From Nemertoderma westbladi (lineage: Eukaryota > Animalia > Xenacoelomorpha), in the NCBI GenBank assembly GCA_032718475.1, contig JAUCBJ010005675.1, forward strand, positions 1 through 64,000: 64,000 bases of DNA. Direction: 5' to 3'. Position 1 is the first letter of the stretch. Every line of letters begins with the position of its first letter. The position numbers and the translations under genes were made by a program. The notes beneath the pieces were generated by a model. That model did no database searches. It was not told where the DNA came from and saw only the letters and a list, made by a program, of their open reading frames with translations. Below, piece after piece: positions 3,500 through 62,429 of this stretch.

Positions 3500-3512
3500 T
3501 ATTATTATTATT

Positions 3513-4859: not shown

Positions 4860-5083
4860 CTTTTCGACAACCGCAAGTAATATGTATATTCAAATCTCTT
4901 ATAAAGGGCATCACCGTAAGAACAACTGAAATTTTTTAATTATTTTCTTTGAAGTTGATGTTTTAAAGGGTTTTCTTTTTGTAGTATTTACTCTAGGTAT
5001 ATCTTGTGGTTTTAAATCAGTAGCTAACGGTTTACTCGATACTAAATATAATTTTATAAATGTTACTCCTGTTTTAACCATTA

Positions 5084-5495: not shown

Positions 5496-6122
5496 TTATT
5501 TATCATTATTATTATTATTATTTTCGCTACGTTTATAGTCAATGTAATTTTTAATGTAACAATTATGATTACGAAATATATCCGATCTAAATCTTAAATG
5601 TTCGGGTGTTTCCTGTCGTAAATCAATTAAGAAATGCGAAAATGGTTCAATAGCCGCATTTTGATAGGAATCTACTAAAAATTTGGTCTGCCCAGGTAAC
5701 ATCTGCTTCGCGAAATTTAAAACCGATAGACTGTCTCGCGGATTTTTCATTAATACTAAGGTATGGCTATTAATTGATCTTGTGCGGTTATGCTTCCCAC
5801 CGTAAAACATGTTTTGCGTTATAAAACAAATAAATATATTGGAATGATGAGCTACCTTAGTAAACAATACAGTTAAAGCTGTACTGGACTCAGTTTCTGT
5901 TAATAAATCATCTATAATTAATAAATCTCGACTATTCACTAAACTATCTATATTTTCTGGCAAACCTTTGTAAAGGTGAGTAATACCGGGAATAGTCGGG
6001 GGATTGCTCCCGTAACAATACAATACTCGCAGGGGGGCTTCGTTGAAACAACCATTCTTGTGTTTAATTAAATTACTGACAAACGTTGATTTTCCAGAAC
6101 CAGATGGGCCAGAAATTATCAT
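5496..6122 (-). CDS. A32/FtsK-like genome packaging ATPase (Polinton type), 5' end possibly clipped
   Basis: Walker A GPSGSGKS, Walker B LLIIDD, then FITQN, RSINSH, KNPRD and FLIDL...RFR. Confidence 0.9.
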   Translation of the reverse strand: MIISGPSGSGKSTFVSNLIKHKNGCFNEAPLRVLYCYGSNPPTIPGITHLYKGLPENIDSLVNSRDLLIIDDLLTETESSTALTVLFTKVAHHSNIFICFITQNMFYGGKHNRTRSINSHTLVLMKNPRDSLSVLNFAKQMLPGQTKFLVDSYQNAAIEPFSHFLIDLRQETPEHLRFRSDIFRNHNCYIKNYIDYKRSENNNNNNDK

Positions 6123-6547
6123 ACTCTTTAATTATGGGCGGGGGGGGGGGGGGGGTGTCACTGAATTACGACACTATATTCTGGAACATGGTGTATATCT
6201 TGAGATATCATATCGAGATAGTATCTATGGAAACTAATGAACTAATTAAAATTTATTTTATTTTATTCGATACAGTAATTTTTACTTTGATGTTAATCAA
6301 ACATAAGGAATACATTACTTAAAGAACTATGTTTCACAAAGTAGTTACTATTTCGTCAGTCAGCTGGCTGGAATTGTGAAATTGACATAAATTTCAAAGA
6401 TGCGCTGCTTGATTTCATACGCTGTCAAAAGTCAACCGTTCTTAGTATAGGAACTTAACACAATCTTTATGCAAACAGAATCAATCACATTAACTCGAAA
6501 GACTTTGAACTTGCCAAACTCGCCACGACCTACCATACATTACCAAC

Positions 6548-11089: not shown

Positions 11090-12792
11090 GTGAGCAATTT
11101 GCCGCTTATTTCAAGCAGCTGTTATCTTCTCAGGAACATGCACAATCTATCACAGATGTAATTAACAACGAAATAAAGTCAATATAAATCTTTATTCCAA
11201 TTCTAGACAGCGATATAAACCCGAACGAAGTTTCAATCTGCTTAGCGAAATTTAAAGCTTCAAAATCGGCAGGAATAGATGGTCTACCTCCAGGAATCCT
11301 CAAATTATTAAGCGATGACTGGCTAATTGCAGTTACTTTATGCTTTAACGATGTTTTCACTGGTAAGGTCCCATACCCCACAGATTGGTCCACTTCCCTG
11401 ATGGTTACGATTTATAAGAAAGGAATTAAGTCACTACCAGAGAATTATCGGGGAATTTCGGTCACTCTGGCCTTGTCTAAATTGTACGACTCCGTCCTTA
11501 CTGAGCGTTTTAATTTATGGTCGAAACCGTCACAATATCAGGCAGGCGCACAGAAGGGACGAGGCTGTACTGAACAGATATTGTGTGTTCGTTTGGCAAT
11601 CGATATTGCCATCAAAACAAAGCGAGAGTTATTCATTGCCTTCATCGACTACGAGAAGGCCTATGACAAAGTTGACAGGATAGTCTTACTCAGGAGATTG
11701 AAACAGATGGGTTGTGGCAGAAGGTTTCTTATGGCTTTATCAGTATCAATGCAGGAGACTATAAATGTAATAGGCAACACAACGTTTGAGAGTACGGGTG
11801 GTGTAGGACAGGGTAAGCCTTCCAGCTGTCCACTATTTTGTACACACATAGACCCTACAATTACAAAAATGGATCGTTTAGGAAAGGACAGTTGGCTAGA
11901 TTCTCTTCATGGAACATTATTAATGGATGACACATGTGTATTGGCTACCTCCCGAGCAAAGTTAACTGATAAACTTAACATCCTCAAAGATGTATGCGAT
12001 GAAATTGGAATGACTTTACATCCTAAAAAGTCGAAATTTCTGACCTCATCCACTCTCGATAGCGACAGAATCCCCATCTTGATAGGGAACATCACAATTC
12101 CAATTGTATCCTCCTATGTCTATTTGGGATCTTTAATATCAATTCACCCCGTAGCAGTTCAAATTGATGACGAAATTAAGATGCGTATTGGTAACTACCA
12201 CAAATTCACTTCATTCCTCGGCAAAAACTGTGACGCTCCCTTTACCGTGAAGAAGTCAGTATGGCAGGCTGCTCTCCAATCTTCGCTATTATACGGATGC
12301 GAAACATGGTTATGTAATAACATCAAACCAATTGTTTCAGTGTTTTACAGAACGCTTAAACAACTACTCTCAGTTCGATTAACAACACCAAATGATCTCG
12401 TCCTTATTGAAACTGGCACTGAACATGTCAAGAGTATCATTAAGAATCGGCAGTTAAAGTTCCTGAGGTCATTGTCCTCACGGCCTGGATATAAAGACAG
12501 TTATCATAACTACATTATGAACGAAGCTACATCAGTAAACTCACCAATGGGAAAATACGCCAAAGAGCTAATAGATACGGGTCATGTCATGTCGGAACTC
12601 CAAGCTGCAAAAGATCGAACTCTTACAGCCATAACGACAAGGTGTGTGAAATATGTGGCATACAACCCAACTCAGAAACCCCATGAATTATACTCTGACC
12701 CTAATGTACCCGAGTGGGAGAGAATCTCATTTTCAAGGATCAGATTGAGTTCCCATCGGCTACCAATGGAGATACTTCGATGGTCTTGGTAA
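11090..12792 (+). mobile_element. 5'-truncated non-LTR retrotransposon, reverse transcriptase ORF (main open part 11401-12792)
   Basis: KSAGIDG, PENYRGIS, FIDYEKAYDKV, GVGQG..SCPLF, LLMDD, YVYLG, LLYGCETW and RIRLSSH.L. Confidence 0.9.
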
Positions 12793-13314: not shown

Positions 13315-16300
13315 ACCCTACTGCCATATTAGAATGTAGGAGAGAGTAGGAAGGTGTACAACAGTGACATACAATAATGCAGGAAAGAGTAGGAAGGTGT
13401 ATCACCATTACTGCCATACCAGAATGTAGGAAAGAGGAGTAAGTTATACCACCATTACTGCCATACTAGATTGTAGGAAAGATTAGGAAGGTGTACCATA
13501 CTGGCATACCAGAATGTAGGAAAGAGTAGGAAGGTGTACCATACTGCCACTCCAGAATATAGTAAAGAGTAGAAAGGTGTACCATACTGCCATGCCAGAA
13601 TGTAGAAAAGAGTACGAAGGTGTACCATACTGCCATACCAGAATGTAGGAAAGATTAGGAAGGTGTACCATACTGGCATACCAGAATGTAGGAAAGAGTA
13701 GGAAGGTGTGCCATACTGCCATACCAGAATGTAGCACAGAGTAGGAAGGTGTACAAAATACTGCCACACCAAAATGTAGGAAAGAGTAGGACCGTGTACC
13801 ATACTGCCACTCCAGAATGTAGAAAAGAGTACGAAGGTATACCATAGTGCCATACCAGAATGTAGGAACGAGTAGGAAGGTCTACCATGCTGCCATACCA
13901 GAATGTAGTACAGAGTAGGAAGGTGTACCATACTTCCATACCAGAATGTAGTACAGAGTAGGAAGGTGTGCCATAATGCCATACCAGAATGTAGTACAGA
14001 GTAGGAAGGTGTACCATACTTCCATACCAGAATGTAGTACAGAGTAGGAAGGTGTACCATACTTCCATACCAGAATGTAGTACAGAGTAGGAAGGTGTAC
14101 CATAATGCCATACCAGAATGTAGTACAGAGTAGGAAGGTGTACCATACTTCCATACCAGAATGTAGTACAGAGTAGGAAGGTGTACCATACTTCCATACC
14201 AGAATGTAGTACAGAGTAGGAAGGTGTACCATACTTCCCTACCAGAATGTAGCACAGAGTAGGAAGGTGTACCATACTTCCATACCAGAATGTTGTACAG
14301 AGTAGGAAGGTGTACCATACTTCCATACCAGAATGTAGTACAGAGTAGGAAGGTGTACAATACTGCCATACCAGAATGTAGTAAAGAGTAGGAAAGTGTA
14401 CCATACTGAAATACCAGAATGTAGTAAAGAGTATGAAAGTGTACCCTACTGCCATATTAGAATGTAGCAAAAGAGTAGGAAGGTGTACCATACTGCTATA
14501 CCAGAATTTAGGAAAGAGTAGGAAGGTGTATCACCATTACTGCCATACAAGAATGTAGGAAAGAGTAAGAATGTATACCATACTGAAATACCAGACTGTA
14601 GTAAAGAGTATGAAAGTGTATCCTACTGCCATATTAGAATGTAGGAAAGAGTAGGAAGCTGTACCATACTGCTATACCAGAATTTAGGAAAGAGTAGGAA
14701 GGTGTATCACCATTACTGCCATACCAGAATGTAGGGAAGAGTAGTAAGTTATACCACCATTACTGCCATACCAGATTCTAGGAAAGATTAGGAAGGTGTA
14801 CAACAGTGACATACAAGAATGCAGGAAAGAGTAGGAAGGTATACCATACTGCTATACCAGAATTTAGGAAAGAGTAGGAAGGTGTATCACCATTACTGTC
14901 ATACCAGAATGTAGGAAAGAGTAGTAAGTTATACCACCATTACTGCCATACCAGATTGTAGGAAAGATTAGGAAGGTGTACCATACTGGCATACCAGAAC
15001 GTAGGAAAGAGTAGGAAGGTGTACCATACTGCCATACCAGAATGTAGCACAGAGTAGGAAGGTGTACAAAATACTGTTACACCAGAATGTAGGAAAGAGT
15101 AGGAAGGTGTACCATACTTCCATAGCAGAATGTAGTAGAGAGTAGGAAGGTGTACCATACTTCCATACCAGAATGTAGCACAGAGTAGGAAGGTGTACCA
15201 TACTTCCATACCAGAATGTAGCACAGAGTAGGAAGGTGTACCATACTTCCATACCAGAATGTAGCACAGAGTAGGAAGGTGTACCATACTGCCATACCAG
15301 AATGTTGTACAGAGTAGGAAGGTGTACCATACTTCCATACCAGAATGTAGCACAGAGTAGGAAGGTGTACCATACTTCCATACCAGAATGTAGTACAGAG
15401 TAGGAAGGTGTACCATACTTCCATACCAGAATGTAGTAAAGAGTAGGAAGGTGTACCATACTGCCATACCAGAATGTAGTACAGAGTAGGAAGGTGTACC
15501 ATACTGCCATACCAGAATGTTGTACAGAGTATGAAGGTGTACCATACTTCCATACCAGAATGTAGCACAGAGTAGGAAGGTGTACCATACTTCCCTACCA
15601 GAATGTAGCACAGAGTAGGAAGGTGTACCATACTTCCATACCAGAATGTAGTACAGAGTAGGAAGGTGTACCATACTGCCATACCAGAATGTTGTACAGA
15701 GTATGAAGGTGTACCATACTTCCATACCAGAATGTAGTACAGAGTAGGAAGGTGTACAATACTGCCATACCAGAATGTTGTACAGAGTAGGAAGGTGTAC
15801 CATACTTCCATACCAGAATGTAGCACAGAGTAGGAAGGTGTACCATACTGCCATACCAGAATGTTGTACAGAGTATGAAGGTGTACCATACTTCCATACC
15901 AGAATGTAGTACAGAGTAGGAAGGTGTACCATACTTCCATACCAGAATGTAGTACAGAGTAGGAAGGTGTACCATACTTCCATACCAGAATGTAGTAAAG
16001 AGTAGGAAGGTGTACCATACTGCCATACCAGAATGTAGTACAGAGTAGGAAGGTGTACCATACTTCCATACCAGAATGTTGTACAGAGTAGGAAGATGTA
16101 CCATACTTCCATACCAGAATGTAGTACAGAGTAGGAAGGTGTACCATACTTCCATACCACAATGTAGTACAGAGTAGGAAGGTGTACAATACTGCCATAC
16201 CAGAATGTAGCACAGAGTAGGAAGGTGCACCACCATTATTGCCATACCAGAATGTAGTACAGAGTAGGAGTAGGTGTACCATAATGCCATACCAGAATGT

Positions 16301-17234
16301 AGGAAAGAGTAGGAAGGTGTGCCATAATGCCATACCAGAATGTAGGAAAGAGTAGGAAGGTGTACTATACTGCCATACCAGAATGTAGCACAGAGTAGGA
16401 AGGTGCACCACCATTATTGCCATACCAGAATGTAGTACAGAGTAGGAGTAGGTGTACCATAATGCCATACCAGAATGTAGGAAAGAGTAGGAAGGTGTAC
16501 CATACTGCCATACCAGAACGTAGTACAGAGTAGGAGTAGGTGTACTATAATGCCATACCAGAATGTAGGAAAGAGTAGGAAGGTGTACTATACTGCCATA
16601 CCAGAATGTAGGAAAGAGTAGGAAGGTGTACCATACTTCCCTACCAGAATGTAGGAAAGAGTAGGAAGGTGTACCATACTTCCCCACCAGAATGTAGGAA
16701 AGAGTAGGAAGGTGTACCATACTGCCATACCAGAATGTAGTACATAGTAGGAGTAGGTGTACCATAATGCCATACCGGAATGTAGGAAAGAGTAGGAAGG
16801 TGTACTATACTGCCATACCAGAATGTAGGAAAGAGTAGGAAGGTGTACCATACTTCCCTACCAGAATGTAGGAAAGAGTAGGAAGGTGTACCATACTTCC
16901 CTACCAGAATGTAGGAAAGAGTAGGAAGGTGTACCATACTGCCATACCAGAACGTAGTACAGAGTAGGAGTAGGTGTACCATACTTCCATACCAGAATGT
17001 AGCACAGAGTAGGAAGGTGTACCATACTTCCCTACCAGAATGTAGGAAAGAGTAGGAAGGTGTACCATACTGCCATACCAGAACGTAGTACAGAGTAGGA
17101 GTAGGTGTACCATACTTCCATACCAGAATGTAGCACAGAGTAGGAAGGTGTACCATACTTCCATACCAGAATGTAGTACAGAGTAGGAATGTGTACCATA
17201 CTTCCATACCAGAATGTAGTAAAGAGTAGGAAGG
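13315..17234. repeat. 43-bp tandem satellite, left part
   Basis: Unit TACCAGAATGTAGTACAGAGTAGGAAGGTGTACCATACTTCCA. The 43-aa period of the minus-strand ORFs equals three units. Confidence 0.97.
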
Positions 17235-17414
17235 TGTTCGCGGTATTTCAACTTTTCATAACGCGAGTTGAATATTTTTTGTACTTATTTAAAATGATTA
17301 TTCCGATATCACTACTGGGTGCGGGATCACGGGTTTGGGCACACTCTATGAACTGGGGGCGATTTATGGGCGAATATTGGGGCGACTTACAGGGTACGGG
17401 ACTCATTTCATGTT

Positions 17415-17450
17415 TATAAGGGCCAGGGGTGGGAGGCAAAATTAAGCAGT
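17415..17450 (+). promoter_or_regulatory. LTR core promoter: TATAA with a CAGT initiator about 30 nt downstream
   Basis: TATAA at 17415-17419 and CAGT at 17447-17450; the same arrangement is in the 3' LTR. Confidence 0.55.
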
Positions 17451-18321
17451 ATTCAGGTTCGCCTGAGTACTATTAGGCCTAGCCCACGCGCCAGGCCTAA
17501 AGGACAAGGACTGCCCTTAGCGGTCCCTGGCCAACAGCAGTTATTACGAGCCTGAAAAGGACATCGGAACGCCGGCTGCTTGTGTCAGGGATTTGCGACG
17601 GGAAACGACACGACAGACCCCTAGCCAAGCCGTACTGGTTCTCGATGATCGTTCCCTTCGGGGTTCGTGAGGGGTGGGATGGACACGCGAAAGGGTCTAC
17701 TGACTAACAGAGGAAGGGTTTGACGAGGACTGCCCTTAGCGGTCTCTGGTCAACAGCAGTTATTACGAGCCTGAAAAGGACATCGGAACGCCGGCTGCTT
17801 GTACCAGGGATTTGCGACTGGAACCGACGACAGACCCCTTAGCCAAGCCATACTGGTTCTCGATGATCGTTCCCTTCGGGGTTCGTGAGGGGTGGGACGG
17901 ACACGCGACGGGGTCGAAAGACAAAGGACTGGACTCTACTGGCCTACCGCCTGTTCGGAGTAGTTTCTCGGCCGCCGAAGCGACTACGAGCCTGAATAAG
18001 GACTCGGAAAGCCTAGGAGGTTGGGTCTCTGCGATGAACCGACGGACCCCTAGCCAAGCCGTACTGGTTCTCGATGATCGTTCCCTTCGGGGTTCGTGAG
18101 GGGTGGGATGGACACGCGAACGGGTCCATCGACACGACAGACTCCTAGCCAAGCCGTACTGGTTCTCGATGACCGATCCCTTCGGGGTTCGAGAGGGGTG
18201 GTACGGATACGCGACAGAGTCTACCGACTGGACTGACCCTTAGCCAAGCCGTGCTGGTTCTCGATGATCGATCCCTTCGGGGTTCGGGGGGGGGGGGGTG
18301 GAATGGACACACGACAGGGTC
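17448..18321 (+). ncRNA. structured RNA array in the LTR: leader hairpins, Y-type long hairpins and five X-type kink-turn/UUCG hairpins
   Basis: X units at 17615-17698, 17833-17915, 18044-18127, 18139-18222 and 18235-18321 have covarying closing stems (GACCC/GGGTC versus GACTC/GAGTC) and the core CTC-GAT-GA-YCG...CCC-TTCG-GGG..CG-WGA-GGG. Confidence 0.65.
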
Positions 18322-18906
18322 GACCGACACCGACACTACGGCATCAAGACTAGGACCGAGGGAAAATCTGGGGAACATTAGGCTAAAATCTGAGCGAACA
18401 GTGGGTAATTAAATAATTTACTGTAGGGATTTATATTGTCGTGTATTATTATTGTGAATAATTTGGTGTATATTGGTTTGGGGAAGCCCAATTTATTCTC
18501 AATCAAGGTTCAACTGTAGGGAAGTTACATTAAAGCGTATATCCAACCAATGCAGCTTTTTCTCAACCGCAATCTTGCATTTAAGAACATTCCTTCTCCA
18601 CAATCAATATCCGGTGACTGGCCGGGATTCCGTGGTCTGTAAAATTCCGCCTCCAGCATCGGCGTTTTCCCCCATGGTGTCGGGAATAACGGCAACAAAA
18701 TTGAAAATAAAATCGCGGCCAACTTCAACTGGTGGAAGTTGGGAATCCTACAATACTCTTCAAAATCTCTCCGTGCTTACCAGCACCCACTACGAGGAAA
18801 CTCTGGTATTTGAGTTAAGACAAAGTCGTGGTCTAATAAATCAACAAACTCGATCTAACCAACTCGTAGTCGGCAGATCACACATTTGGAGAGTTGTTAA
18901 CAGGGA

Positions 18907-19098
18907 ATGGAAGTATCGATCACACCCATTGATATAATCCAAGTTGAGCCAGGAATCTGGCACGTCGAGGTTGAAGTACAAGGAACGAACGTCGGACAAT
19001 TCAGGATTACCGTTCGGGTGGTCCAGGCTGAGTACAACACCTACGAGGAACTATTTTACGACATCGCACATCTAGCTATCAACGAGGCGCTACAATGA
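18907..19098 (+). CDS. small acidic upstream ORF (63 aa) whose stop overlaps the gag start (ATGA)
   Basis: ATG at 18907; TGA at 19096-19098 overlaps the ATG at 19095-19097; protein-like composition. Confidence 0.4.
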   Translation: MEVSITPIDIIQVEPGIWHVEVEVQGTNVGQFRITVRVVQAEYNTYEELFYDIAHLAINEALQ

Positions 19099-22000
19099 CA
19101 ATGAATAACGTATCCGATACCGATGAGATGGACCACCACACAGACTCGGAAGCCGACGAGGTACCAAACGTCAAGAACATGGCCCGTCGACTAGGTGCTC
19201 TCAAAGGCGGAGTCACACGAGCGTATCAACGCATAGAGAAACAACTCAAGGGAGTCGAAACCCCCCTCAACGAGATACAAACTCAGCTTCAGAATATCCG
19301 AAGTATTCTACAACGATATGAGAGAATGATACAGGCGTACCAAGAACTCATCCCCACCATCGACTAGGTAAACTACCCCAAATTGGAAGAACACGTTGCA
19401 CGCCTAGACGAATTCCGCAAACAACACCGGAGAACCCTCAGCCTCGTGAGAGGCTACGAGGAACAGTTCTACAAGAGAGCTGAAAGAACGGACGCAGAAT
19501 CAGTGCGAACCTCCAACACCAGGACCACAATTCATCGAAAGAGAACGGGGTCCTCAAGACACCAGCGCTCCAGCGCTAGGAGCGAGATATCCGGCTCAGC
19601 ACGCAGTTCTCAGGGGGGGCCGCCACTCCGAGATCAGCTACGAGAACAGAAGGCATTAGCCCTCAAAGCTCGGATGGAAGATGAGTATGTTCAACTGCGA
19701 ACCGAGCAAGATGTAATAGCCGCCGAAATGCAAAAACAAGAGGCCGAGCAAGCGGCCAAATGACAGGCCGAGCAACGTGAACAGGAAGCTGAACAACGTA
19801 AATGGGAAGCTAAACAACGTGAACAGGAAGCTGAACAACGTGGACGAGAAGCCCAACAAGAGATCGAACAACGTAAATGGGAAGCTGAAATGTGTAAACA
19901 ACACGCCGAGGCCCAAGCGATTCTCATACACAAAAAGAATGCGGATGTTGCGAAACTCGCGGAGTACGAAGCCGCACTTATAGAATGAGATATTCAACTC
20001 TACGAGGACTGGGAAAGGGATATAGATCAGAATTATGAACCAATACCGATACCAGAATTAGAAAAGTCATTAACGACACCAGCGGTGAAACCCCCGAAAC
20101 CCGAGTTCCCGCCTACCATACAGTCTACGTTATCGGCACAAGCACCGGTATTCCATCCCCCACCGGTTACGCTGAAGAATGAGGAACCTTATATCCCAGC
20201 TAACCCCACGATCCCGAGCGTCCCCAAGTACGAGCCTGAAAAGGACTCGGAACGGATCGCTACTCCCCGATCCAACAACCCGTTTACATCCACACCACAA
20301 ACCCGTAGTCGTGTCATCATTAAGATTCCACCTATCATTGATCCATCGAGTATGGGAGAGAGCGCCAATAACTATAACCCTCCAAACCACTCCAGTTCGG
20401 ACGACGTCGGCATTATCCAGGCATTGGAAAACCGCCTCTCCATGCCCAAGATGGAGATCCGCACCTTCGAAGGAGATCCCGTCGATTACCTCAGATTCAA
20501 GAAACGGTTCTTTGCGCAGATTGGATCAACGGACATAGCCGACGCACAGAAACTGGTATATTTATCACAATACCTGGGTGACAAACCACGCCGAATCATC
20601 GCTTGTTTTGAGGGAGGTTCTCATGAAGCATACTACGATGCATGGAAAACTCTAGACAAAAGATACGGAAATACCGGGACTATAATTAATAAAACTCCAG
20701 AGAAACTGATACAGGACGCGGGATCACTAGGGGACCCACAGAACATCCAGGAATTCTCAGATTCCATGAAGGATGCCTACTACACTCTGAAACCTTTAAA
20801 TAAGGAGGACCAGGTGAACAACATTCTAAACCTCCGACAGATCGCCCGGAAGTTCCCCGGATGGCTGCAAAGTAAGTGGGCCTATAAATGCGTAGATCTC
20901 CGGCGCAGACATCCAGATCAAGACCCCAGCTTCCTCGAAATGTCGGGATTCCTGGACGATATCTCCGAAGCCATGAATGACTCGATGTTCTCGAAACAGA
21001 GTCTCGCCAAGTTGGACGCAATAGAGAACAACTCCAGGAGTAAGACACCCACTCAGAGGCCGAGATTCCGCCCCCCTCCGGTGAGCACGATGGCTATCAC
21101 CATGGCCGAGGATTCCGACGATGAAGACTACGAGGAACCAACATCAGCCGAGGAATGGGCGTGTTATCTCGCGAATTGGGCACCCGAGAGGGAAGGCATC
21201 ACAAACTCCCTTCTCTGTCTCTATTGTGGAGAGAAACATAAAGTTGAATTCTGCAGGAAGTTCCAGTTTGCCGAACTCGTCCCACACTTCGAGGCGATTA
21301 TGAAACACCGAGGATGCTTCCGGTGTCTGGGAACAGGTCACTACATTCGGGATTGCGACCAAAGGTCGTGTTGTGCGGTTTGTAACGACCTACGTCATCA
21401 CACGCTCCTCCACATCCCCGCGAACTTCGACTTCACCACCCTCCCCTTTCGGATTGAAGCCAAGCGAAGAGGAGAAACAAACCATGTTTCTAAAGGAACC
21501 CGGACAACCCAACGGAGAGAAACCAACCCGTTTAAAATCGCCACTAACGCATCACCAGTGACAAATATCTCAGCCACGATTAACCTTATAAATCGCCGTT
21601 ACATGGTCTTCGCCAAAGTAATCCCAGTAAGAACTCAAGGGGTCGGTAAATCCTTGACGATGCTCGCGTTCCTTGACAACGGGTCGGACGGAACCATCAT
21701 CGACCGGGATTTCCTCGAGCAACTCGGCCTAGACTATGAGCCTTGCAAACGGCCCATACAAACTATCACCGACCACAGAGAGGTAGAATCCGGGGAAGTG
21801 CAACTCCAGATGGAAGAGGTAATGAAGGGCTATGAGACGGTTAAGCTGACCATCAAGAACGCCTTAGTACACACAGACCTCCGAGTGCGGTTCCGACAAT
21901 CAGCCGAGTACGCCCCCCTCATACAGCTGGACCGAGACGACGTGGATCTAAGGTGCCCGCCGTTGGATGTAAACCGCATCACCCTACTGATCGGACTCGA

Positions 22001-25000
22001 TACACCTGAACTACACATACCCACCGGAGACGTCGCCCGATCTATAAAGCAGGATGACGGCTTTTACGCTGAACGAACAATAATGGGATGGACACTCTGC
22101 GGCATCAAGGAAGAGACTACCGACACCTATACATACCTTCCTAAATGTCAGATTAAAGAAAATGCAACATCCGTGGGTTATTTCTCAGCTACAGACCTCG
22201 ATGAGGATTTATTTCTTGAGACCGAAAAAACCCAGCAAGAGATGACTAAATACTTTAATCTAGAGACCCAAGAGTTCGCTGAAAAGGACTAAAACCCGTC
22301 CGAGGAGGATCAATATTGTATGGATGTCCTGGACCAGGCCACGTTCAACGACGGACACTGGTGTTCACCCATGTTATGGAAGGACCCAAGCAAACCAATG
22401 GCAAACAACGCCAACATGGCCCTTAGGCGACTTAAGGGGATTCTACGCCGGCTGAATGACCAACCCGAGATAAAAGAGAAATATAACACCGTAATCAAAG
22501 GATATCTCGAGGATGGATTAGCAGAAATGGTACCACGGAATGAACTGCAAGGGGGTAAAAGAACATATTATCTTCCAACCCACTATGTGGTAGAAGCCCG
22601 GAAGGGCGGTAAAATCCGAGTAGTTAACGATGCCGCTGCTATGTACCAAGGCGAATCCCTGAACAGTCAGCTTTATACGGGGCCCAACATATATAGTACA
22701 CTTATCGGCGTATTGATCAGGTTCAGAGAAAACCGGATAGCATTCACCTGCGACATCAAAGCCATGTTTCACCAGGTTCGTACGCTACCAAGAGACTCAG
22801 ACTGTCTATGTATCCTATGGACGGATAAAACACTAACTCAACTGGAGATTAGTCAACTTACAATGAAGGATGTAGACGTAATGCGTATGATCGTCAGGAT
22901 CTTCGGAGCTAAGGACTCGCCGGTAGCATGTAGTGACATGCTGAAGAAGACGGCAACCATGTGCGAAAACGAGTTCCTTCCAACCATCATAGAAACCATC
23001 CGACGATGCTTCTACATGGACGACGGATGCGCCGGCGCAGATAATGTGGACGAGGCATATCGGCTAGCAATGGGAATGGTAGAATGTTTAAAGAAAGGAG
23101 GTTTCCCGCTCGTGAAGATCAGATCCCACGACAAAAAACTTATGGAAAAGTTTCCGGAGGACATCCGACTGGACAACAACAAAATGTATTCGGAGGATGT
23201 GGAACACCGTGTACTTGGTATTGAATGGGACATAGAATCAGACGAATTCATTTTCAAATATAAACCCCTACCCAAGCCTATGACGAAAAGGGGATGTTTG
23301 GCGATAAAAAGCGCAATCTTTGACCCACTAAATTTCATATCTCCGGTAACCTTGGCCAGAATGAACCTGATTAAGGAAATGTGGATAGAAGGACTGGGAT
23401 GGGATGAAGAACTCCCCCCACACCTCAGCGTCAAATGGAGAAAATGGACGGACCAGCTCGAACACCTACATCTTATGCGGATCCCTCGACCGTTCTTCCT
23501 CGATAAACTACCCACCGATATCTTCCAGCTCCATACCTTCTCGGATGCTTCGAATACCGGAATCGGCGTAGTCACCTTCTTACGAAGACTAAGCAACGAT
23601 GGAAACGGCGATACGAGCTTTTTATTTTCTAAAGCTAAGACAGTATCCGGGGAATTCGTAGCAACGATTCCAAGACTCGAGCTACAGGCTGCAGTTTGGG
23701 CAGTGAGACAGAACCGCATGGTCATGCGGAACCTACGAATCCCCATCGAATCTCAACACTTCTGGGTTGATTCGAGCATCGTTCTCTACTATCTCCACTC
23801 TCCATCCCGACGTCACACTACGTTTGTAGCGAACCGAGCCGCGGAGATAAAACAGTGTACCGGCCGAGAACAGTGGCACCACGTAAACGGGAAAGAAAAT
23901 CCAGCGAACTTATCAAGCCGAGGCGCCACCCCAAAACAACTCGGTAAAAGTAAACTCTGGCTTACAGGCCCGGAATTCCTACAGCAGCCACAATTAACAT
24001 GGAGTACCCGATTCGACCCCGAACTCGATAGTGGAAAATACTCCGAGGACGACAAAGAGATCCGTAAAGTCCATAGAAGCAACGCAGTGGAAATTTATAG
24101 TTGTCTGACTGAGCCTGCAAAGGACTCGGGCAGGCACTATAACGTTGCGACGATCATTCAACCAGCGGCGTCTTTACATCTGTTAATCGAGCGAACTTCA
24201 TCAATGAGACAGGCTCATCCACCACGTTATAACCCTTCGCAACTTCCTACGGTGGAAAGACAACAAGCCGATAGTTCAACGGAGTATACAAGAACTCATT
24301 ATCGTGGAGAAGTGTATCGTTGGATATGTCCAGAGAGAAAGTTTCCCCGATGAGTGGGAACAACTCAGTGCGGGCAAGACCTTGAAACCGGACAGCCCAG
24401 TCTACCAACTGAGAACAATGATGGGAGAGGATGGACTGATCCGACTGAATACCCGGATGGCAAACGCCCCGGTCGAATATGAGGTTAAATACCCGGCGCT
24501 TCTGCCCGGAACTTCGACACTAGCCAAGCTATTAATTCAACAATGTCACGAGGAAAACCATCACGCAGGACAGAACTGGATTATAGCTAATATAAGACAA
24601 AGATATTGGATCACACACATCCAGCCACTGATCCGGAAAGTGTTGAAACGTTGCTTTACCTGCAGAAGATATCTAGCACCACCACTCACACAAAAGATGG
24701 CCGACTTACCAGCCACCCGTCTACAGCCCGATTCCCCACCGTTCTACGTCACCGGAGTGGACTGTTTTGGACCGTTTACGGTCATCGAACGACGATCCAA
24801 CATCAAATGCTGGGGAGCCATTTTCACCTGCCTTAGGTCTAGAGCAATCTACCTAGACATTGTGGTAAACCTTACGCAACACGCATTCATCAACGCTCTG
24901 CGTAGGTTCGTGGCGAACAATGGGACATGTCGTCACATGTACTCCGATAATGGTACAAACTTTGTGGGAGGAGAAAGAGAACTTAGAGAGGCGATCGAGG

Positions 25001-25718
25001 AATGGTTTACCGATAACACCGCATCCCAAGTCTGGAAGGAACACCAGATACAGTGGCATTTCCAGACACCATTAGCACCCCATACGAGCGGGGTATGGGA
25101 GAAACTGATCGACTTAGTAAAACGATCCATGGCGTCGCACTAGGAGACACCCGGGTAACCCATGACACCCTCCGCACAACATCCTGCGAGATCATGGCTA
25201 CCCTGAACAACCGGCCCATTGTCCTTATCTGCGACGACCCCACAGACCTGGAGCCCCTCACTCCTAACCACCTACTGGGGAGACCCAAAACTCATGTTCT
25301 CCCAGAGACAATGTTTCCGGATCCCAACGATATCGCGAGACATACAAATTGGAAGAAGGCCCAAGCGTTGGCAGCGCATTGGTGGAGAATCTGGGCCCAG
25401 GAGTACCTCATAACCCTCCGGACCAGGAGGAAGTGGAACAACACCTACAGGAATGTCGAAGTTGGCGACATGGTGCTGGTCAAAGAAGACCTCAAAGACC
25501 ACGTCCACTGGCCTGTGGCGCGAGTCGTGGCAATACAACCGAGCAAAGACGGACTTGCGAGGACTGTGACGATACGAACGGCAAAGGGCCACTACCAACG
25601 CCCTATCCAGAGGCTGTGCCTTCTTGAAGGCAATGACAGCGGTGACTCTACGAGAGGTGATAAGTTCCCTACTCAAGATCCTGCTGCAGACATTGGTGAC
25701 AATGCTAAAACCGTGTAA
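19095..25718 (+). pseudogene. BEL/Pao gag-pol polyprotein (Gag with 3 Zn knuckles, aspartic protease, RT, RNase H, integrase), broken by stops and frameshifts
   Basis: CLYCGEKHKVEFC / CFRCLGTGHYIRDC / CAVCNDLRHHTLLH; AFLDNGS; CDIKAMFHQV and FYMDD; HTFSDAS and IPRLELQAA; HHAG..CFTC, GVDCFGP, SDNGTNF and GVWE; WPVARV and RPIQRL. Confidence 0.95.
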
Positions 25719-25996
25719 ACCCTTCTCATCCTGTTGACAAACTCTTTAAAACGTGATTTATCGACAATGAAAAATGGACCCCCCTTAAACCAACTGTAAC
25801 CACGCAATGGTATTTGTGTTTCCTCGTGTGTTATGTGGAGTCCAGCATCACCCTGCAGATGTTTCGACTGACGCAGGGTCGTTTATGTATTGTTTACCCT
25901 GATTTTGGTCATCGGGACCAACGATATTGGATTATTGGAAATGGTAAAGATTTGAAGTGGAATTCATTGTATCCATTGTAGTATGTTATGTTGTCC

Positions 25997-26408
25997 GTTG
26001 CGTGCGCAGTTCGGGGCGTAGGCGGTGTAACTAGTCCAGCTGTAGATCCCGGATTGCCGCGCAACACCCCCTCTATCCCGTTATTCTGGTGGGTCCATGG
26101 TGCATCCACATGACTTCGACGATAGAGGGTTTTATGTTTCTCAGTCGCGTTATTCTGGTGGGACCGTTGCGTGGATTTTGGGGCGTAGGCGGTGTAACTA
26201 GTCCAGCTGTAGATCCCAGAATGTTGCATAACCCCATCCCACATGACTTCGTCGACTGAGCTTTATGTTGTTGGGAGTGTTATTCTGGTGGGTCCCTGGT
26301 GCATTCCACGTGACTTCACTCCCAGCGTCTTCATTGTCCGTTACGTGCGCAGTTTGGAGCGTAGGCGGTGTAACTAGCCCAGCTGTAGATCCCAGATTGC
26401 CGCGTAAC
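25997..26408 (+). ncRNA. modular structured RNA element between pol and the accessory ORF (A1-B1-B2[A2]-B3-A3)
   Basis: Three copies each of two conserved cores, set in closing stems that differ in sequence but remain complementary. Confidence 0.7.
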
Positions 26409-26930
26409 ACCCCTTCCACAACAAAGATTTCCCAAAGAAGATGATTGAATGTAGTTGGAAAAGATGAAAAGAATCAGACAACTCTACTATAAACCGAATG
26501 GTGACGCGTATGATGATGAAAATGAAATGATGCGCACCCTGGTGCTGCGCTTATAACAAATGATGATAGCCGGGGGGCTATAACCCCAATGATGATGTGG
26601 AAATAAATGAAAATGTGAAATAAATGAAATGTGATGAAATAATAATGAGAAATGAAAAAAGACAAAAAAAAGGTATAAAAAAGTCTAAAGAAAAGAATTG
26701 GAAAAAAGAAGAGGACATAAAAAGTCATAAAAACTGGTTGGATATTAATGTATAGCTATAGTAACTGTAAATGCTGAATGTATTAGTAATAAGATGATAG
26801 ATGCCTATATAGCAATGTTATTTAATAAACTGAATTAAAAATAAACTGAATTATTCTGCAATCACTATAGTTTCAGACTTTCTGGACTTATAATTAACTG
26901 ATATAATTTGCAACGGACATAATTGTAAAT

Positions 26931-29536
26931 ATGGACCCAAATCGCCAAATTATCGGCGAATTACGTAATACGATAGATCTACTGGAATATCCACAACCCG
27001 GATCCCCTAACTTTGATACAGATTGGAACACCCTAATAAATGAGAATGTGCGATACGTCAAATTCTGCGGGCGAGAGGGACCGGATTCCCGGAATCTACG
27101 AGCCCTCCGGTTGGCCGATGCTAGTACGAGACTGAAAAGAACTCGGAACGCAAAGGCTACCGGAGGGGATGAGTTGTCGTATTGGGAAACGTTCCGGCAA
27201 AGCGTCTACAGATCCCGATGTTTGATATACGACAACGAGGGAAATGCGACGCCCACCTCGAAAGCGATGACGTTGGCGCGATGTCAAAGTTTCGTCGACG
27301 ACAAGAGTACGTACCTCACACACTGGGGAAACCTGTCGGAGTGTACGGCGACGCTACGAGAGGAACGTATATCGATCATCCAGAATCGCGATGACTACCG
27401 GGAAAAGTACGGAGCGAAAGAATACGGTCGATCCTTGGTCGTCGTCCTCGGAACCCTGGACGGTTTGGTATTGGTGTGTCGAATATTTCCAACACCCAGA
27501 CAGGAAGTGCAGGCAGCCGGAGCGATCTGGTTACTACCTCCGGAAATCCAAAAGATCCTCTTCGACTTCGACGTCATTAAAATCGGGTCGGATATAAAGG
27601 CGGACGTCCGGAACGACTACGCGAACGCTCCTTCAGGAAGAGACCGACGAGACGACCTCAACGCCCTTAGCCATTGCGTCGACACTCAAACGCTATTAGC
27701 CTGGTTACGATTCGCCGAGTTCATGCGAGGATTCCAAGAGGTGAGACCGACGAAATCCGGGATTGGCTACCTCGCTGTGCTAAACGGCGGCATCGACTTC
27801 AAACCTCAGAAACTCCGGGATTATAATAAAATATATGGTGGATACCCGGGATTAGAAATAAAGAGCGAGCGAGAGGGTCGATGGAAGGACGTGGAGAGAA
27901 AGTGGACGATACACCAAAAGTGGGAGAATCCGGAACGACGGAACTACATCTACGTTGTTATGGAATCATACACCGTCGCTAAGTTTATCTGTAAAACCCT
28001 CGATAACCTCATTATGGCGGTTCCTCTTTCCTTCGTCGACTACGACTGGAACGAGGTTGTAAACCACGCGTTCAAAGCGGTCGAGAACATTACACCGGGA
28101 GAGATGAAAACGCTCGCCGTCATCGATTCCTGGGACGAGAGCGGACCTTACGACATCCCTACGATTACCGATCTTCTCGGTGCGGAGGAGCCTCTGATTT
28201 CTTCGGAAGGGGAAGAACTATGGCTGCAGGAGGGCATTCTACTCTCCACCCCGAAGCGACAACTCGAGCCGGAGGCCGCTTACCAACCGGCAGCCAAACG
28301 GGTTGCCTCCGCCGAACCTGCGACGGAAGCGGGCGTTTCCTCACCTCTTGGCTCCGGTAGCCCTGCGAGGGAGTTAATCACCACCTCCGCGTTGAGCAAC
28401 TTCGGCGATATATGCCAAAGGTTATCCCCATATCATATCCTTTCCCGGGTGGCGAAGACTGGTCTTCAGAGATTCCGAGTACCAGCAACCAACGGTCACG
28501 CTCAGCGATACTGGTTGAAAAGGGTCCCAGCGCTGCGCCGACTCCCGACGATCTCCTCGGAATCCCTCGGTCGAAAACCCCGGCACCTCTTCGCCGACCA
28601 GCGGTGGCTACTACACCCTCCGTTCCTCAGGATCCTATGCGACTAACCCGTTGGTACGCCGAGCAAACCGAATGGATCCACCGCCAGAAACGGTCGTCCG
28701 AGTTGAGACCGGCAGGACATAAAGAAGGTTATCGGAGCGAGGACCTACTACGCAAAAGCCCAGCCTTCCGCGGGCTACCAGCCACCGCGAATATTCAGAA
28801 GAGTGACCGACGACTCGAGTATTACGTCGGCGTCCCGATTCCGATATTCCCCGGTCGAGAGATGCAGTTGGAGGTGTGCGGTAACTGCGGTTCGGAGCAG
28901 TGCCCACGCGGTAAAAGAAATCGGGTTACCGATTCGTGCCTCCAGCTCCTCGGGATACTTTATTGCCCATACTGCGCGACATCGGGCCACGACGTTACCG
29001 TCTGTCCGATCCTATATAACCTCTGCACTACGTGCAGTTTCCGTGGACATTCCGCTAGCCCCCGCTGCTATATCAAATGTCCTACCAAAGACGTTACCGC
29101 TATGGGAAATATGGTCATGTTTGAAACATACGCAAACAGCCACATAAGGACCAAAACGCGGAGAAACGCTGGGAATATCGCGCAGGAGATGGCGTGCGGG
29201 TATTTTTCCTTCCCGGAGCGCCTACATACGACGGCAAAGCTACCTTTCCATTATGTGGATCTGCTGCTGAGCGCCGGATTATTCGGCCCATTTGAAGTCC
29301 TTAGACGCTTAAACTCGTATAAAGAGGAGTTCGGTGACGGAGAGTGGTTCCTTGAGGCTCGCAACTCCGAGTTGGAACGACAAACCGATATGATCCCGTT
29401 GCCATCGAAAGGAAGAGCCGCCAGGAGACAAGCCGAAGCGTTGCTCACGATGGATGTTGACGCTCCTCTACCAGCTCTAGCGATCGACGAGAGTCGACGG
29501 GCGAAGAGGAGAAAGGCGTATCAGAGAAAGAAATAG
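26931..29536 (+). CDS. accessory ORF in the env position: DnaQ-like (WRN/EXD/Egalitarian-type) 3'-5' exonuclease fold, P/S/A linker, Cys/His zinc knuckles and basic tail; one -1 frame change near 28360-28410
   Basis: VVLGTLDGLVLV..LPPEIQKILFDFDVIKIGSDIKADV..CVDTQ..SGIGYLA..W...NYIYVVMESY; then CGNC..., CPYCATSGHDVTVC, CTTCSFRGHSASPRC and RRAKRRKAYQRKK. Confidence 0.65.
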
Positions 29537-29714
29537 TGGACTGGGATATTCCAGGAACATTTATTGAACACTTATTTTTATACATATATATATATAAACT
29601 CTAGGCCAAATTAATCAAGACTATGCAATATTAAAATTTTGGGGTTTTTTATATGGGAATGACCTACGCAAACTCAATCTACCGATAGACCTCACGAAGG
29701 TCATTGGGGGGGAC

Positions 29715-30557
29715 TGTTCGCGGTATTTCAACTTTTCATAACGCGAGTTGAATATTTTTTGTACTTATTTAAAATGATTATTCCGATATCACTACTGGGT
29801 GCGGGACCACGGGTTTGGGCACACTCTATGAACTGGGGGCGATTTATGGGCGAATATTGGGGCGACTTACAGGGTACGGGACTCATTTCATGTTTATAAG
29901 GGCCAGGGGTGGGAGGCAAAATTAAGCAGTATTCAGGTTCGCCTGAGTACTATTAGGCCTAGCCCACGCGCCAGGCCTAAAGGACAAGGACTGCCCTTAG
30001 CGGTCCCTGGCCAACAGCAGTTATTACGAGCCTGAAAGGGACATCGGAACGCCGGCTGCTTGTGTCAGGGATTTGCGACGGGAAACGACACGACAGACCC
30101 CTAGCCAAGCCGTACTGGTTCTCGATGATCGTTCCCTTCGGGGTTCGTGAGGGGTGGGACGGACACGCGACAGGGTCGACCGACACCGACACTACGGCAT
30201 CAAGACTAGGACCGAGGGAAAATCTGGGGAACATTAGTTAGGCTAAAATCTGAGCGAACAGTGGGTAATTAAATAATTTACTGTAGGGATTTATATTGTC
30301 GTGTATTATTATTGTGAATAATTTGGTGTATATTGGTTTGGGGAAGCCCAATTTATTCTCAATCAAGGTTCAACTGTAGGGAAGTTACATTAAAGCGTAT
30401 ATCCAACCAATGCAGCTTTTTCTCAACCGCAATCTTGCATTTAAGAACATTCCTTCTCCACAATCAATATCCGGTGACTGGCCGGGATTCCGTGGTCTGT
30501 AAAATTCCGCCTCCAGCATCGGCGTTTTCCCCCATGGTGTCGGGAATAACGGCAACA
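29715..30557 (+). repeat. 3' LTR (843 bp) with a single Y and a single X hairpin module
   Basis: Direct repeat of the 5' LTR, preceded by the PPT and followed by the TSD. Confidence 0.95.
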
Positions 30558-31010
30558 GAAGGTGTACCATACTTCCATACCAGAATGTAGTACAGAGTAG
30601 GAAGGTGTACCATACTTCCATACCAGAATGTAGTACAGAGTAGGAAGGTGTACCATACTTCCATACCAGAATGTAGCACAGAGTAGGAAGGTGTACCATA
30701 CTTCCATACCAGAATGTTGTACAGAGTAGGAAGGTGTACCATACTTCCATACCAGAATGTTGTACAGAGTAGGAAGGTGTACTATACTGCCATACCAGAA
30801 TGTAGCAGAGTAGGAAGGTGTACCATACTTCCCTAGCAGAATGTAGTACAGAGTAGGAAGGTGTACTATACTGCCATACCAGAATGTAGGAAAGAGTAGG
30901 AAGGTGTACCATACTTCCATACCAGAATGTAGCACAGAGTAGGAAGGTGTACCATACTTCCCTACCAGAATGTAGCACAGAGTAGGAAGGTGTACCATAC
31001 TCCCATACTT
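30558..31010. repeat. 43-bp satellite, right part (a last remnant follows at ~37139-37162)
   Basis: The same unit resumes in register after the BEL TSD. Confidence 0.95.
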
Positions 31011-31132
31011 GAATAAAGGAAGCGAGTTAATGTAATGGAACGATGCCTTTCGTGGTGTAAGCATACTCAAATTATAAATATTAATGACGAGTAAGGGTCT
31101 TGAGCCACGGCTAATATAAAATATTGTTAGTT

Positions 31133-31175
31133 TACCATATAGCTATTTCACGCTTCCCGCGCGTCTTCAGTGGTA
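31133..31175 (-). ncRNA. minimal type I hammerhead ribozyme in the Penelope pseudo-LTR
   Basis: Minus strand reads TACCA-CTGAAGA-c-GCGC-gggaa-GCGT-GAAA-TAGCTA-TA-TGGTA: stem I, core, stem II, palindromic short stem III and an AUA cleavage triplet. Confidence 0.8.
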
Positions 31176-31865
31176 TATTATTTTAAACACAATATTAATA
31201 AAATTTAACTAAAACAGCCAATTCAAAGCCTAAAAAGATATATACAAAACCGATACCGTTATGGTACTGTACAGTAGTTATGACTATTTTAATAAAGATA
31301 TTAGCTGTGTAAAGTGGCAGACCGGAAGAAGAAGTTGAGCATGGTTAGAAATTATGTCGGAAATTCATAATGCATCAAAACTAACTCAAATCAAAATTTA
31401 AAATAAAAGTATTAAAATGTTAAAAACTTTTTAAAAAAATAATAGTAAATAAAAACTAAACCAATGGTGTACCCTATCCTGATATTAAGTAGAATATCTT
31501 TAAAAACTTATAAATAAAGGCTAATAAAATAATAAAACAACAGTGATATAGTGTATACGAATGACATGTGTATAAAAACATATATAAAAAAAAACCTCAG
31601 AAATAAAAGCAGTAATAAAATCTTTAAAATTAATGAAATAAAACTAACAGAATGATTGAGTAATACTAACTACGCCATAGGGTAAATATCCAGAGGTGTC
31701 AGCTATGCAAAAAGCAAATAGCAGCTGTATGACTGGAGTTGAAATTATCATTAAGGCGGGCATGTGGGGCGAGCCACATAGTTAGCAAAACAATAAACTA
31801 TAAAATAAAACAAACTGACTAATACAAATTCCTAAGTAGAATATACAAAATAAAGTTCACATGTT

Positions 31866-34800: not shown

Positions 34801-34938
34801 ATAGTCTATTTGTATCACGGTACGGGTTTGTTTGATTTTTAGATTTAAACAATTCTTGACATCAGTAGAAGCCCTTCGGTTAATATCAAGCGAGTTAATG
34901 TAATGGAACGATGCCTTTCGTGGCGTAAGCATACTCAA
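31866..34938 (-). pseudogene. Penelope-like RT plus GIY-YIG endonuclease ORF, multiply frameshifted
   Basis: LLGLGFTFIP, KGDK, KDHKP, GRPIIS, VTIDVIEMFTAIP, GAPMG, LVDDSF, VDYLDL; Cys linker CNGPRCKC..FNC; YFGKTEQRLHERL and E..LI...PPLN. Confidence 0.9.
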
Positions 34939-34973
34939 ATTATAAATATTTATGACGTAAAATATTGTTAGTT

Positions 34974-35016
34974 TACCATTTAGCTATTTCACGCTTCCCG
35001 CGCGTCTTCAGTGGTA
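34974..35016 (-). ncRNA. second hammerhead copy with a mutated cleavage site (AUA to AAA)
   Basis: Identical to 31133-31175 except for loss of the conserved U16.1. Confidence 0.65.
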
Positions 35017-35504
35017 TATTATTTTAAACACAATATTAATAAAATTTAACTAAAACAGCCAATTCAAAGCCTAAAAAGATATATACAAAACCGATACCGT
35101 TATGGTACTGTACAGTAGTTATGACTATTTTAATAAAGATATTAGCTGTGTAAAGTGGCAGACCGGAAGAAGAAGTTGAGCATGGTTAGAAATTATATCG
35201 CAAATTCATAATGCACCAAAACTAACTCAAATCAAAATTTAAAATAAAAGTATTAAAATGTTAAAAACATTTAAAAAAAATAATAGTAAATAAAAACTAT
35301 ACCAATGGTGTACCCTATCCTGCTATTAAGTAGAATATCTATAAAAAATTATAAATAAAGGCTAATAAAATAATAAAACAACAGTGATATAGTGTATACG
35401 AATGACATGTGTATAAAAACATATAAAAAAAACCTCAGAAATAAAAGCAGTAATAAAATCTTTAAAATTAATGAAATAAAACTAACAGAATGATTGAGTA
35501 ATAC

Positions 35505-60307: not shown

Positions 60308-60372
60308 AGAAATGTTGAACATTATACAAGCAAGAAATAGAACTTGGCAAATTTAAAAGGATCAAATTTCAA

Positions 60373-62165: not shown

Positions 62166-62429
62166 ACCAAATCTCTGGATTGATGATTCCAAATATCTCT
62201 CTAAAAACGGCCAAGTACAGTGCCAACCCGCTTCTAATCAAGGAATGGTTAGAGCGTCAGACTTCCAATCTGAAGATCTCGTGTTCGATCCCACCTAGTC
62301 GTCAATGCCTATTGAAAGCTGTGCACAACGAAGGCTATAAAAACCTCTGGATGGCTTTTATACTAAAACGCGACGCGGGCTGTATTGTGCAAGTACAATC
62401 TCCAACCAGACCTTGTTCAGCAATGGTGT

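Follow-up and report, generated by a model that had tools for sequence, protein, structure and literature searches.

The closest described counterparts of the gene considered here come from bdelloid rotifers, in which the retrotransposons Juno1/2, Vesta2/5 and Athena/Terminon carry, according to the available portions of PMC5408684 and PMC6431247, a DEDDy-type third open reading frame (ORF3) of unproven function. Two host proteins with a related fold are also relevant: EXD1 is described as an inactive RNA adaptor (available portion of PMC4712191), and Egalitarian, whose catalytic residues are not needed for this, recognises stem-loops, that of the I factor retrotransposon among them (bioRxiv 10.1101/2025.08.03.668247). 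The profile of the family Belpaoviridae provides only for gag, pol and env, genomes of 4.2–10 kb and long terminal repeats (LTRs) of up to 1.2 kb (PMC8742986). In a stretch of 64,000 nucleotides (nt) from Nemertoderma westbladi (contig JAUCBJ010005675.1, positions 1 to 64,000; hereafter the window) we describe a BEL/Pao LTR retrotransposon spanning 17235-30557 (13.3 kb, with an inner region of 11.0 kb), which carries between its integrase and its 3' LTR a third gene that can be identified with high confidence as coding for a predicted exonuclease fold joined to zinc knuckles.

The literature surveyed contains no BEL/Pao exonuclease gene, with subscription journals, Repbase Reports and supplements lying outside its coverage. 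The word 'exonuclease' does not occur in the portions available of PMC3118150 and PMC2774666, and those of PMC6338049 and PMC8220671 add nothing on BEL/Pao.

Results

In the window copy the third gene is spread over two frames. The first is an ORF of 571 amino acids (aa) at 26931-28646 (P0001), whose start codon is favourably placed for initiation (A at -3, G at +4), the second is open for 391 aa at 28361-29536 (P0002), and the overlap between them is 286 nt. A preliminary description of the window, made from the letters alone, had proposed that both frames form one protein of ~870 aa and that the second is open from ~28360, quoting a series of exonuclease-like motifs from the first. These motifs (LPPEIQ at aa 202, KIGSDIKAD at 217, CVDTQ at 249, SGIGYLA at 276 and YVVMESY at 341 of P0001) and both frames are all where they had been placed, and the parts of the gene before and after the break sum to ~865 aa.

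Contigs of four public runs (X1 to X4, representing three samples, as X1 and X3 are the same one, and three studies under one species label) were aligned to positions 26700-29720. An indel near 28,430 is carried by 255 of 319 depth units in X1, 449 of 449 in X2, 2717 of 3117 in X3 and 82 of 82 in X4, and its size explains the frame difference. The depth is low at the break and few short contigs bridge 28,430; one contig of 733 nt, ~10% divergent from the window, crosses it without any other gap. Among the indels listed (12 of 13), two are the break event itself and ten lie outside the ORF. The family is abundant, with 2986 contigs of one run aligning to these 3 kb, and six low-depth joints show some of the other copies to be deleted or rearranged. 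Since other copies carry a frame-restoring indel in all four runs, the -1 shift, which the preliminary description had left to be checked as either a private indel or a conserved feature, must be confined to this copy or rare, so that the gene consists of a single frame of some 865 codons.

The relatives of the protein lead to the same result by another way. A phmmer search with the second frame among 1.84 billion representative sequences gave seven matches, six of them with the zinc module and one spurious (P0007, discarded for its immunoglobulin-like repeats). Although only the second frame had served as the query, P0006 matches the first frame over aa 137-368 (E 2e-11), as does P0009 (E 7e-5; both values are for single comparisons), and P0003, which has no direct match to the first frame, possesses a degenerate domain that aligns with P0006 and P0009. 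All three are single fused ORFs. Distant relatives found by the zinc half that also match the N-terminal half support independently the fusion of the two as one gene. In P0004, P0005 and P0008 the zinc module occurs without the exonuclease domain, and in P0003 it occurs twice; the module seems to form a separate domain family that has no name as yet. The annotation of the relatives goes no further than 'hypothetical protein'. Word-index searches with each half returned no relative, Pfam gave no exonuclease match on the relatives, a search with the zinc profile returned only three proteins that were already known, a sequence scan with two relatives found no locus, and an integrase scan found two short loci without the third gene.

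The third gene is kept by selection. Silent changes are in excess, making up 20 of the 37 coding changes against 29% expected (p 0.001; from the 40 differences listed out of 324) and 22 of 40 in a second contig alignment that overlaps the first set (the 40 differences listed out of 68); these counts cover the listed differences, changes private to the window copy included, and are a rough measure. The contigs of other copies retain the ORF, and the listed indels other than the break itself lie outside it; the conservation among family members on which the preliminary description had made its proposal depend is indeed observed.

The fold of the N-terminal half was approached through the relatives. 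A profile of the three long relatives, with the window left out, scores P0001 at 21.9 bits over aa 163-380, the best of 1000 shuffles reaching 5.1 bits (416 were above the listing threshold). The predicted local distance difference test score (pLDDT) of the P0006 model is mostly 60-90 over aa 90-280 and 330-380, with the domain at about aa 90-380. Foldseek matched this model to EXD2 (E 1e-5), Nibbler (9e-5), WRN (2e-4) and Egalitarian (8e-4), with RNase D and Exd1 also on top, and a structural aligner gave Nibbler at Z 12.6 (root-mean-square deviation 3.3, 192 residues aligned), Egalitarian at 11.9, WRN at 11.2 and Exd1 at 10.5. In a search independent of Foldseek over 48,161 representatives the first 28 rows were all of this fold, and a viral structure library again returned 3'-5' exonucleases. 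At the sequence level, the best non-zinc match of a four-sequence profile was EXD2 (E 0.024). A DnaQ/DEDDy fold is predicted for P0006 and may be carried to the window protein by homology. The WRN/RNase D-type DEDD fold proposed in the preliminary description has in this manner found its match in the relative's model (Nibbler, Egalitarian and WRN, Z 11-12.6); a DnaQ-like match is obtained for the relative, which the profile links to the window, and not for the window protein itself.

In P0006 and P0009 (~33% identity) the D-x-E of ExoI is intact, at residues 161/163 and 92/94, respectively, together with the ExoII Asp and a Y-x3-E in ExoIII. Instead of the usual Y-x3-D of ExoIII, the window protein and both full-length relatives keep the Tyr and have Glu in place of the Asp. 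The Glu had been taken for a sign of inactivity, a view which had to be abandoned: as relatives with intact ExoI and ExoII have the same residue, it is a family trait and no sign of decay. Judged by these motifs, the protein is a variant of the DEDDy fold and not a canonical member.

The proposed degeneracy of ExoI stood in part. The motif is absent at the homologous place of the window protein, where the alignments show a gap of about 16-20 residues opposite the final part of a helix and the strand of ExoI in the relatives; the site as a whole could be completed by D101 and E103 upstream. A 1104-nt contig from another sample covers the ExoI region with no gap inside the ORF, so the window copy is not alone in having the short form. 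The D101/E103 pair is preceded by a predicted helix and a hydrophobic strand (low confidence); when compared with the helix-plus-ExoI segment of the relatives, its segment scores -0.3, third in rank and at chance level. The strand before the expected ExoI aligns instead at aa 140-156 (46 of 5000 shuffles), and the alternative register in which the strand at aa 146-153 would be a substituted ExoI also gave a chance-level score. In the window lineage ExoI may have been deleted, substituted in place or displaced. In P0003, which has D-x-K and no clear ExoII or ExoIII, the fusion is retained, and active-site loss with the fusion kept has, by this comparison, occurred elsewhere in the family. The ancestral form, with the D-E-D-E of the two relatives, would, we infer, have been an active 3'-5' exonuclease.

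The zinc sites that had been noted in the second frame are present (Cys and His at P0002 aa 173-240), including a CCHC knuckle. The middle knuckle is a canonical CX2CX4HX4C (C202, C205, H210 and C215 of P0002), the third is CX2CX4HX5C, and the first lacks its His in the window. The Cys and His residues of the middle knuckle are invariant in all seven aligned sequences; Pfam zf-CCHC has no match to P0002. A conserved extension follows the knuckles; it is ~60 aa long, and its F-E, A, G and Y columns do not vary. The zinc profile best matches the RNA-binding knuckles of LIN28 (E 3e-5), nucleocapsids, that of HIV included (E 0.007-0.03), and Air2 (E 0.017), while its match to the Gag knuckles of the same element is weak (probability 4%). 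In the P0006 model the zinc part is of low confidence and no fold match was listed for it. The basic C-terminal tail noted at the outset is likewise found, with nine Lys or Arg residues among the last 30, and P0006 and P0009 have basic tails as well.

The carrier was assigned to BEL/Pao (Belpaoviridae) by the ends of its LTRs, the duplicated target site, the polypurine tract, a Gag that combines DUF1759 with knuckles, and the order of domains in Pol. Pfam matches above the cut-offs in gag-pol are DUF1759 (E 1e-13), Peptidase_A17 (4e-37), Integrase_H2C2 (1e-9) and DUF5641 (6e-29); those of protease (PR), reverse transcriptase (RT), RNase H (RH) and the rve integrase (IN) are under the cut-offs, yet are ordered PR-RT-RH-IN. 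Gag has three knuckles of its own. The LTRs differ by three mismatches in 838 aligned bases and by 624 additional bases in the 5' LTR, which are tandem repeats of about 95 and 220 bp. Nearly identical LTRs combined with six breaks in gag-pol indicate a copy that is defective but moved recently, likely with proteins supplied in trans by other copies. The element was inserted in a 43-bp satellite array (about 16000-17234 and 30558-31020). Its third gene begins 1.2 kb past pol and stops 180 bases short of the 3' LTR, and no second copy of the gene was found within the window. Upstream of it lie an A-rich stretch with four AATAAA (26560-26870) and then a candidate splice acceptor (26876); these, as well as the repeats of the spacer (Table 1), may control third-gene expression.

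A motif of ~20 bases recurs seven times in the element, each time in sense orientation. The 5' LTR holds three copies (17547, 17766 and 17987), and there is one each in gag (20231), pol (24110), the third gene (27127) and the 3' LTR (about 30027). With up to three mismatches allowed, five copies were found against 0.01 expected, and the gag and third-gene copies are identical at 24 of 26 bases despite different reading frames. In the predicted fold the stem is bulged and, in most copies, capped by a GNRA-type loop; it sits atop a longer stem that varies with the location. Folding z-scores of the copies are -5.2, -4.5, -2.7, -2.4 and -1.5; the third-gene copy has the lowest value of 402 windows of the element (-6.4 with 25 shuffles, -5.2 with 200), and the other copies were not flagged in the sliding scan. 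A model made from six copies recovers all seven on the sense strand, with one chance match elsewhere in the window; 41 of its 42 pairing cells are paired and two changes keep a G-U pair. Rfam gave no match over the element at E 0.1, and by inspection the hairpin lacks the second stem of a hammerhead. The hairpin is likely a cis signal on the element RNA, a candidate for packaging, export or localisation.

The coordinates of the features are collected in Table 1.

Table 1. Features of the BEL/Pao element and of its third gene (positions in the window)
Feature	Positions	Strand	Remarks
Target-site duplication, 5 bp	17230..17234 (left), 30558-30562 (right)	+	
5' LTR	17235..18697	+	TG...CA ends; internal tandem repeats, more than in the 3' LTR; 1.46 kb
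gag-pol, BEL/Pao	19095..25718	+	Four in-frame stops and two frame changes in this copy
Three imperfect repeats ~170 bp apart	25991..26416	+	Spacer between pol and third gene; one of three windows folds better than shuffles
Third gene, before break (~499 aa)	26931..28430	+	N-terminal extension, exonuclease-like domain, low-complexity linker
Predicted hairpin, third-gene copy	27127..27145	+	
D101-x-E103	27231..27239	+	No other D-x-E precedes the core; perhaps a displaced ExoI
DEDDy-type exonuclease-like domain (aa about 137-380)	27339..28070	+	Predicted from homology to P0006, the relative with the matching model
ExoII Asp (D225)	27603..27605	+	Aligns with D230 and D156 of the full-length relatives
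ExoIII Y341-x3-E345	27951..27965	+	Glu for Asp; same in both full-length relatives
Frame break of this copy	28425..28436	+	Contigs of other copies carry a small indel here
Third gene, after break (~366 aa)	28436..29536	+	Linker, zinc module, basic tail
Zinc module	28877..29269	+	Three tandem knuckles, then a conserved extension that belongs to no known family
Basic tail, possible nuclear localisation signal	29495..29533	+	9 K/R in last 30 aa
Polypurine tract	29706..29713	+	Adjoins the 3' LTR
3' LTR	29715..30557	+	TG...CA ends

The remainder of the window contains traces of other mobile DNA. ORFs on the minus strand at 3978-4889 and 5496-6131 have an rve integrase match (E 2e-11) beside a weak A32-like ATPase match (E 0.001), with further unassigned ORFs at 1942-3511, and the pairing recalls a Polinton/Maverick fragment. 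On the plus strand there are an ORF with a weak cold-shock-domain match at 6873-7931 (E 9e-5) and a reverse transcriptase ORF at 11188-12792 (E 2e-18). Near-identical direct repeats at 31020-31666 and 34888-35504, ~3.84 kb apart, enclose minus-strand ORFs without Pfam matches and are possibly another LTR-type element. Long tandem arrays with units of 12/24 bp and 23 bp occupy about 55540-57600 and 60235-62250.

Discussion

Zinc knuckles bind RNA, as does the pocket of a nuclease, and selection has kept the protein in a lineage without ExoI in its place. For this reason we favour, at slightly less than an even chance, the view that in this lineage the protein serves as an RNA-binding adaptor for the RNA of its own element and not as a working nuclease. 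The knuckles and the pocket would bind RNA, and the basic tail would carry the protein to the nucleus, where it would engage freshly made genomic RNA, the recurrent hairpin of the LTRs, gag, pol and the third gene being a possible binding site. RNA bound in this way would be helped to evade degradation or silencing and to be exported or packaged, in a manner comparable to the carriage of RNA by Egalitarian and EXD1 with this fold. Taken as a whole, with the possible binding of the hairpin included, this mechanism is somewhat more apt to fail than to hold. Egalitarian and EXD1 may serve as models of its working, with no orthology claimed. The preliminary description had invoked Egalitarian as a fold that had lost catalysis, which requires correction, since the protein, according to bioRxiv 10.1101/2025.08.03.668247, keeps all catalytic residues and needs none of them. 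An extended form of the idea, improbable in our estimate, is that a BEL/Pao clade encodes an Egalitarian-like adaptor reading the GNRA-capped hairpin, present seven times and in coding regions of different frames, and steers its RNA past silencing to export, transport or packaging; this would be a system like that of Rev and the Rev response element (RRE), made from a host nuclease fold.

Other views of what the gene is were also considered. Two separate proteins, or a programmed -1 frameshift joining the two frames, could be argued from the overlap of 286 nt in the window, from the three of six relatives that are listed as zinc-only proteins (297-391 aa) and from a codon-usage scan, which did not locate the frame switch point and in which the codon signal of the overlap favours neither frame; as the frame difference is explained by the indel in other copies, and as the fusion is a single ORF in three relatives, this is very improbable, and the programmed frameshift was rejected as largely refuted by that indel. 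An even poorer case can be made for a highly diverged envelope gene. The gene does occupy the env position, and the most hydrophobic 19-mer of P0001 (aa 168-186, mean 2.08) is high enough for a membrane helix; in the alignment this segment falls on two beta strands predicted for the relative, the C-terminus is basic and without an anchor, and the fold matches of the relative are nucleases, the viral library included. We accordingly rejected the env identity, in line with the preliminary description, whose statement that no signal peptide or transmembrane segment is evident agrees, by hydropathy, with the polar N-terminus and the C-terminus and is qualified by this one 19-mer. It is also quite improbable, if less so, that the gene is a captured host gene travelling as a passenger without benefit to the element. 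The relatives could be host genes, and Rodriguez et al. (PMC5408684) saw no clear departure from neutrality in the rotifer third genes. A mere passenger is at odds with the silent excess and with the restriction of the listed indels to the flanks; moreover, the third gene has no introns, no named or annotated host homologue was found among 1.84 billion representatives or 5.8 billion proteins, and three relatives stand on contigs of 10,962-11,302 nt, near the 11.0-kb inner region of the element (a hint only).

Two competing functions deserve more weight. The protein might be a working exoribonuclease of 3'-5' polarity whose D-E-D-E site is made up of D101, E103, D225 and E345, with Y341, and to which the knuckles would bring a substrate, trimming either the 3' end of the element RNA or host small RNAs aimed at the element. 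P0006 and P0009 keep the D-x-E, D and Y-x3-E pattern at about 33% identity, no D-x-E other than D101-x-E103 precedes the core, and a helix and a hydrophobic strand are predicted just before it; no common change at these codons is among the 40 differences listed out of 68, and Nibbler, which actively trims small RNAs, is the best structural match. On the other hand, the D101/E103 segment is at chance level in comparison with the relatives and would require an insertion of ~60 aa or a segment swap, the strand preceding the expected ExoI aligns at aa 140-156, and the Z-scores of Nibbler, Egalitarian and WRN lie ~1 apart, their ranking being uninformative; we regard an active enzyme as unlikely, though by no means negligible. 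Rather less probable is a counter-silencing decoy of the host proteins of the PIWI-interacting RNA (piRNA) pathway that share the fold (EXD1, Nibbler, Mut-7), which would bind small RNAs or partners and weaken silencing in trans. Three proteins of small-RNA pathways are among the closest folds, copies of the family are numerous (2986 contigs from a single run on 3 kb), the defective copy with its nearly identical LTRs suggests that the products act in trans, and a silencing role was raised by Rodriguez et al. (PMC5408684). On the other side, the fold is equally similar to that of proteins outside silencing, namely WRN, the polymerase exonuclease domains and Rrp6.

Several observations weigh against the adaptor reading or against the ground on which it is built. 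Modelled from its single sequence, the window domain has a pLDDT of 31 and no fold match; the model that did match is that of a relative, P0006, computed from an eight-row alignment that included two window segments. P0001 and P0002 have no match in Pfam, NCBIfam, PHROGs or the PDB sequences, and the silent and changing counts cover the listed rows and are rough. D101 and E103 could complete the acidic site of the window protein, and catalysis in the family is favoured by the presence of four acidic residues in two of the three long relatives. As for the hairpin, there is no two-sided compensatory change in six copies and one pair is broken in the third-gene copy; only shared membership of the element ties the protein to it, and the Gag knuckles are an equally good candidate for its reader.

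Comparison with known systems

Juno and Vesta are Ty3/Gypsy-like, and the carrier of the present gene is a BEL/Pao element. As described in the rotifer articles, ORF3 resembles the window gene in being a separate ORF after pol that replaces env and in coding for an RNase D-like DEDDy protein with no membrane anchor. Its pattern is DEED, in contrast to the D-E-D-E of the relatives of the window protein, and, unlike it, the window lineage lacks ExoI at its place. For Vesta2/5 only a Cys-His-Cys motif is noted there, whereas the window protein has three knuckles and the conserved extension, a comparison made by description.

Among host proteins, Egalitarian, EXD1/Exd1 and Exuperantia are like the window family in combining, according to the portions of the sources available, a DEDD fold with RNA binding that does without catalysis, Egalitarian reading stem-loops; they differ in being host proteins with other partner domains, at 13-15% identity to P0006 and with no knuckles matched. 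Nibbler/Mut-7, EXD2 and WRN are the best structural matches to P0006. Their exonuclease domains have Asp in ExoIII, where the window family has Glu, and no carriage of them by retrotransposons was found in the literature surveyed. The spacings of the first two knuckles match those of LIN28, retroviral nucleocapsid and Air2, and the third knuckle with the ~60-aa extension matches nothing known. With the Belpaoviridae profile the element shares the gag-pol layout, the LTRs, the polypurine tract and a third gene after pol; it departs from it in its length of 13.3 kb, its 5' LTR of 1.46 kb and a third gene that is not env.

BEL/Pao elements have been described with gag, pol and at most env, and this one possesses a selected third gene of another kind, whose protein family lacks a Pfam model and yielded no member with a name in the searches made. 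The relatives with four acidic residues and the lineages without them offer a natural comparison, the hairpin is a candidate ligand, and the role of the third gene is testable with isolated domains. DEDDy third genes as such are already known from rotifers; what is new here is the BEL/Pao carrier, the knuckle partner and the unusual acidic pattern. Together with the rotifer cases, this suggests that DEDD nuclease folds have been taken up more than once by unrelated retrotransposon lineages, and such repeated uptake points to a common need, most likely the handling or shielding of their own RNA.

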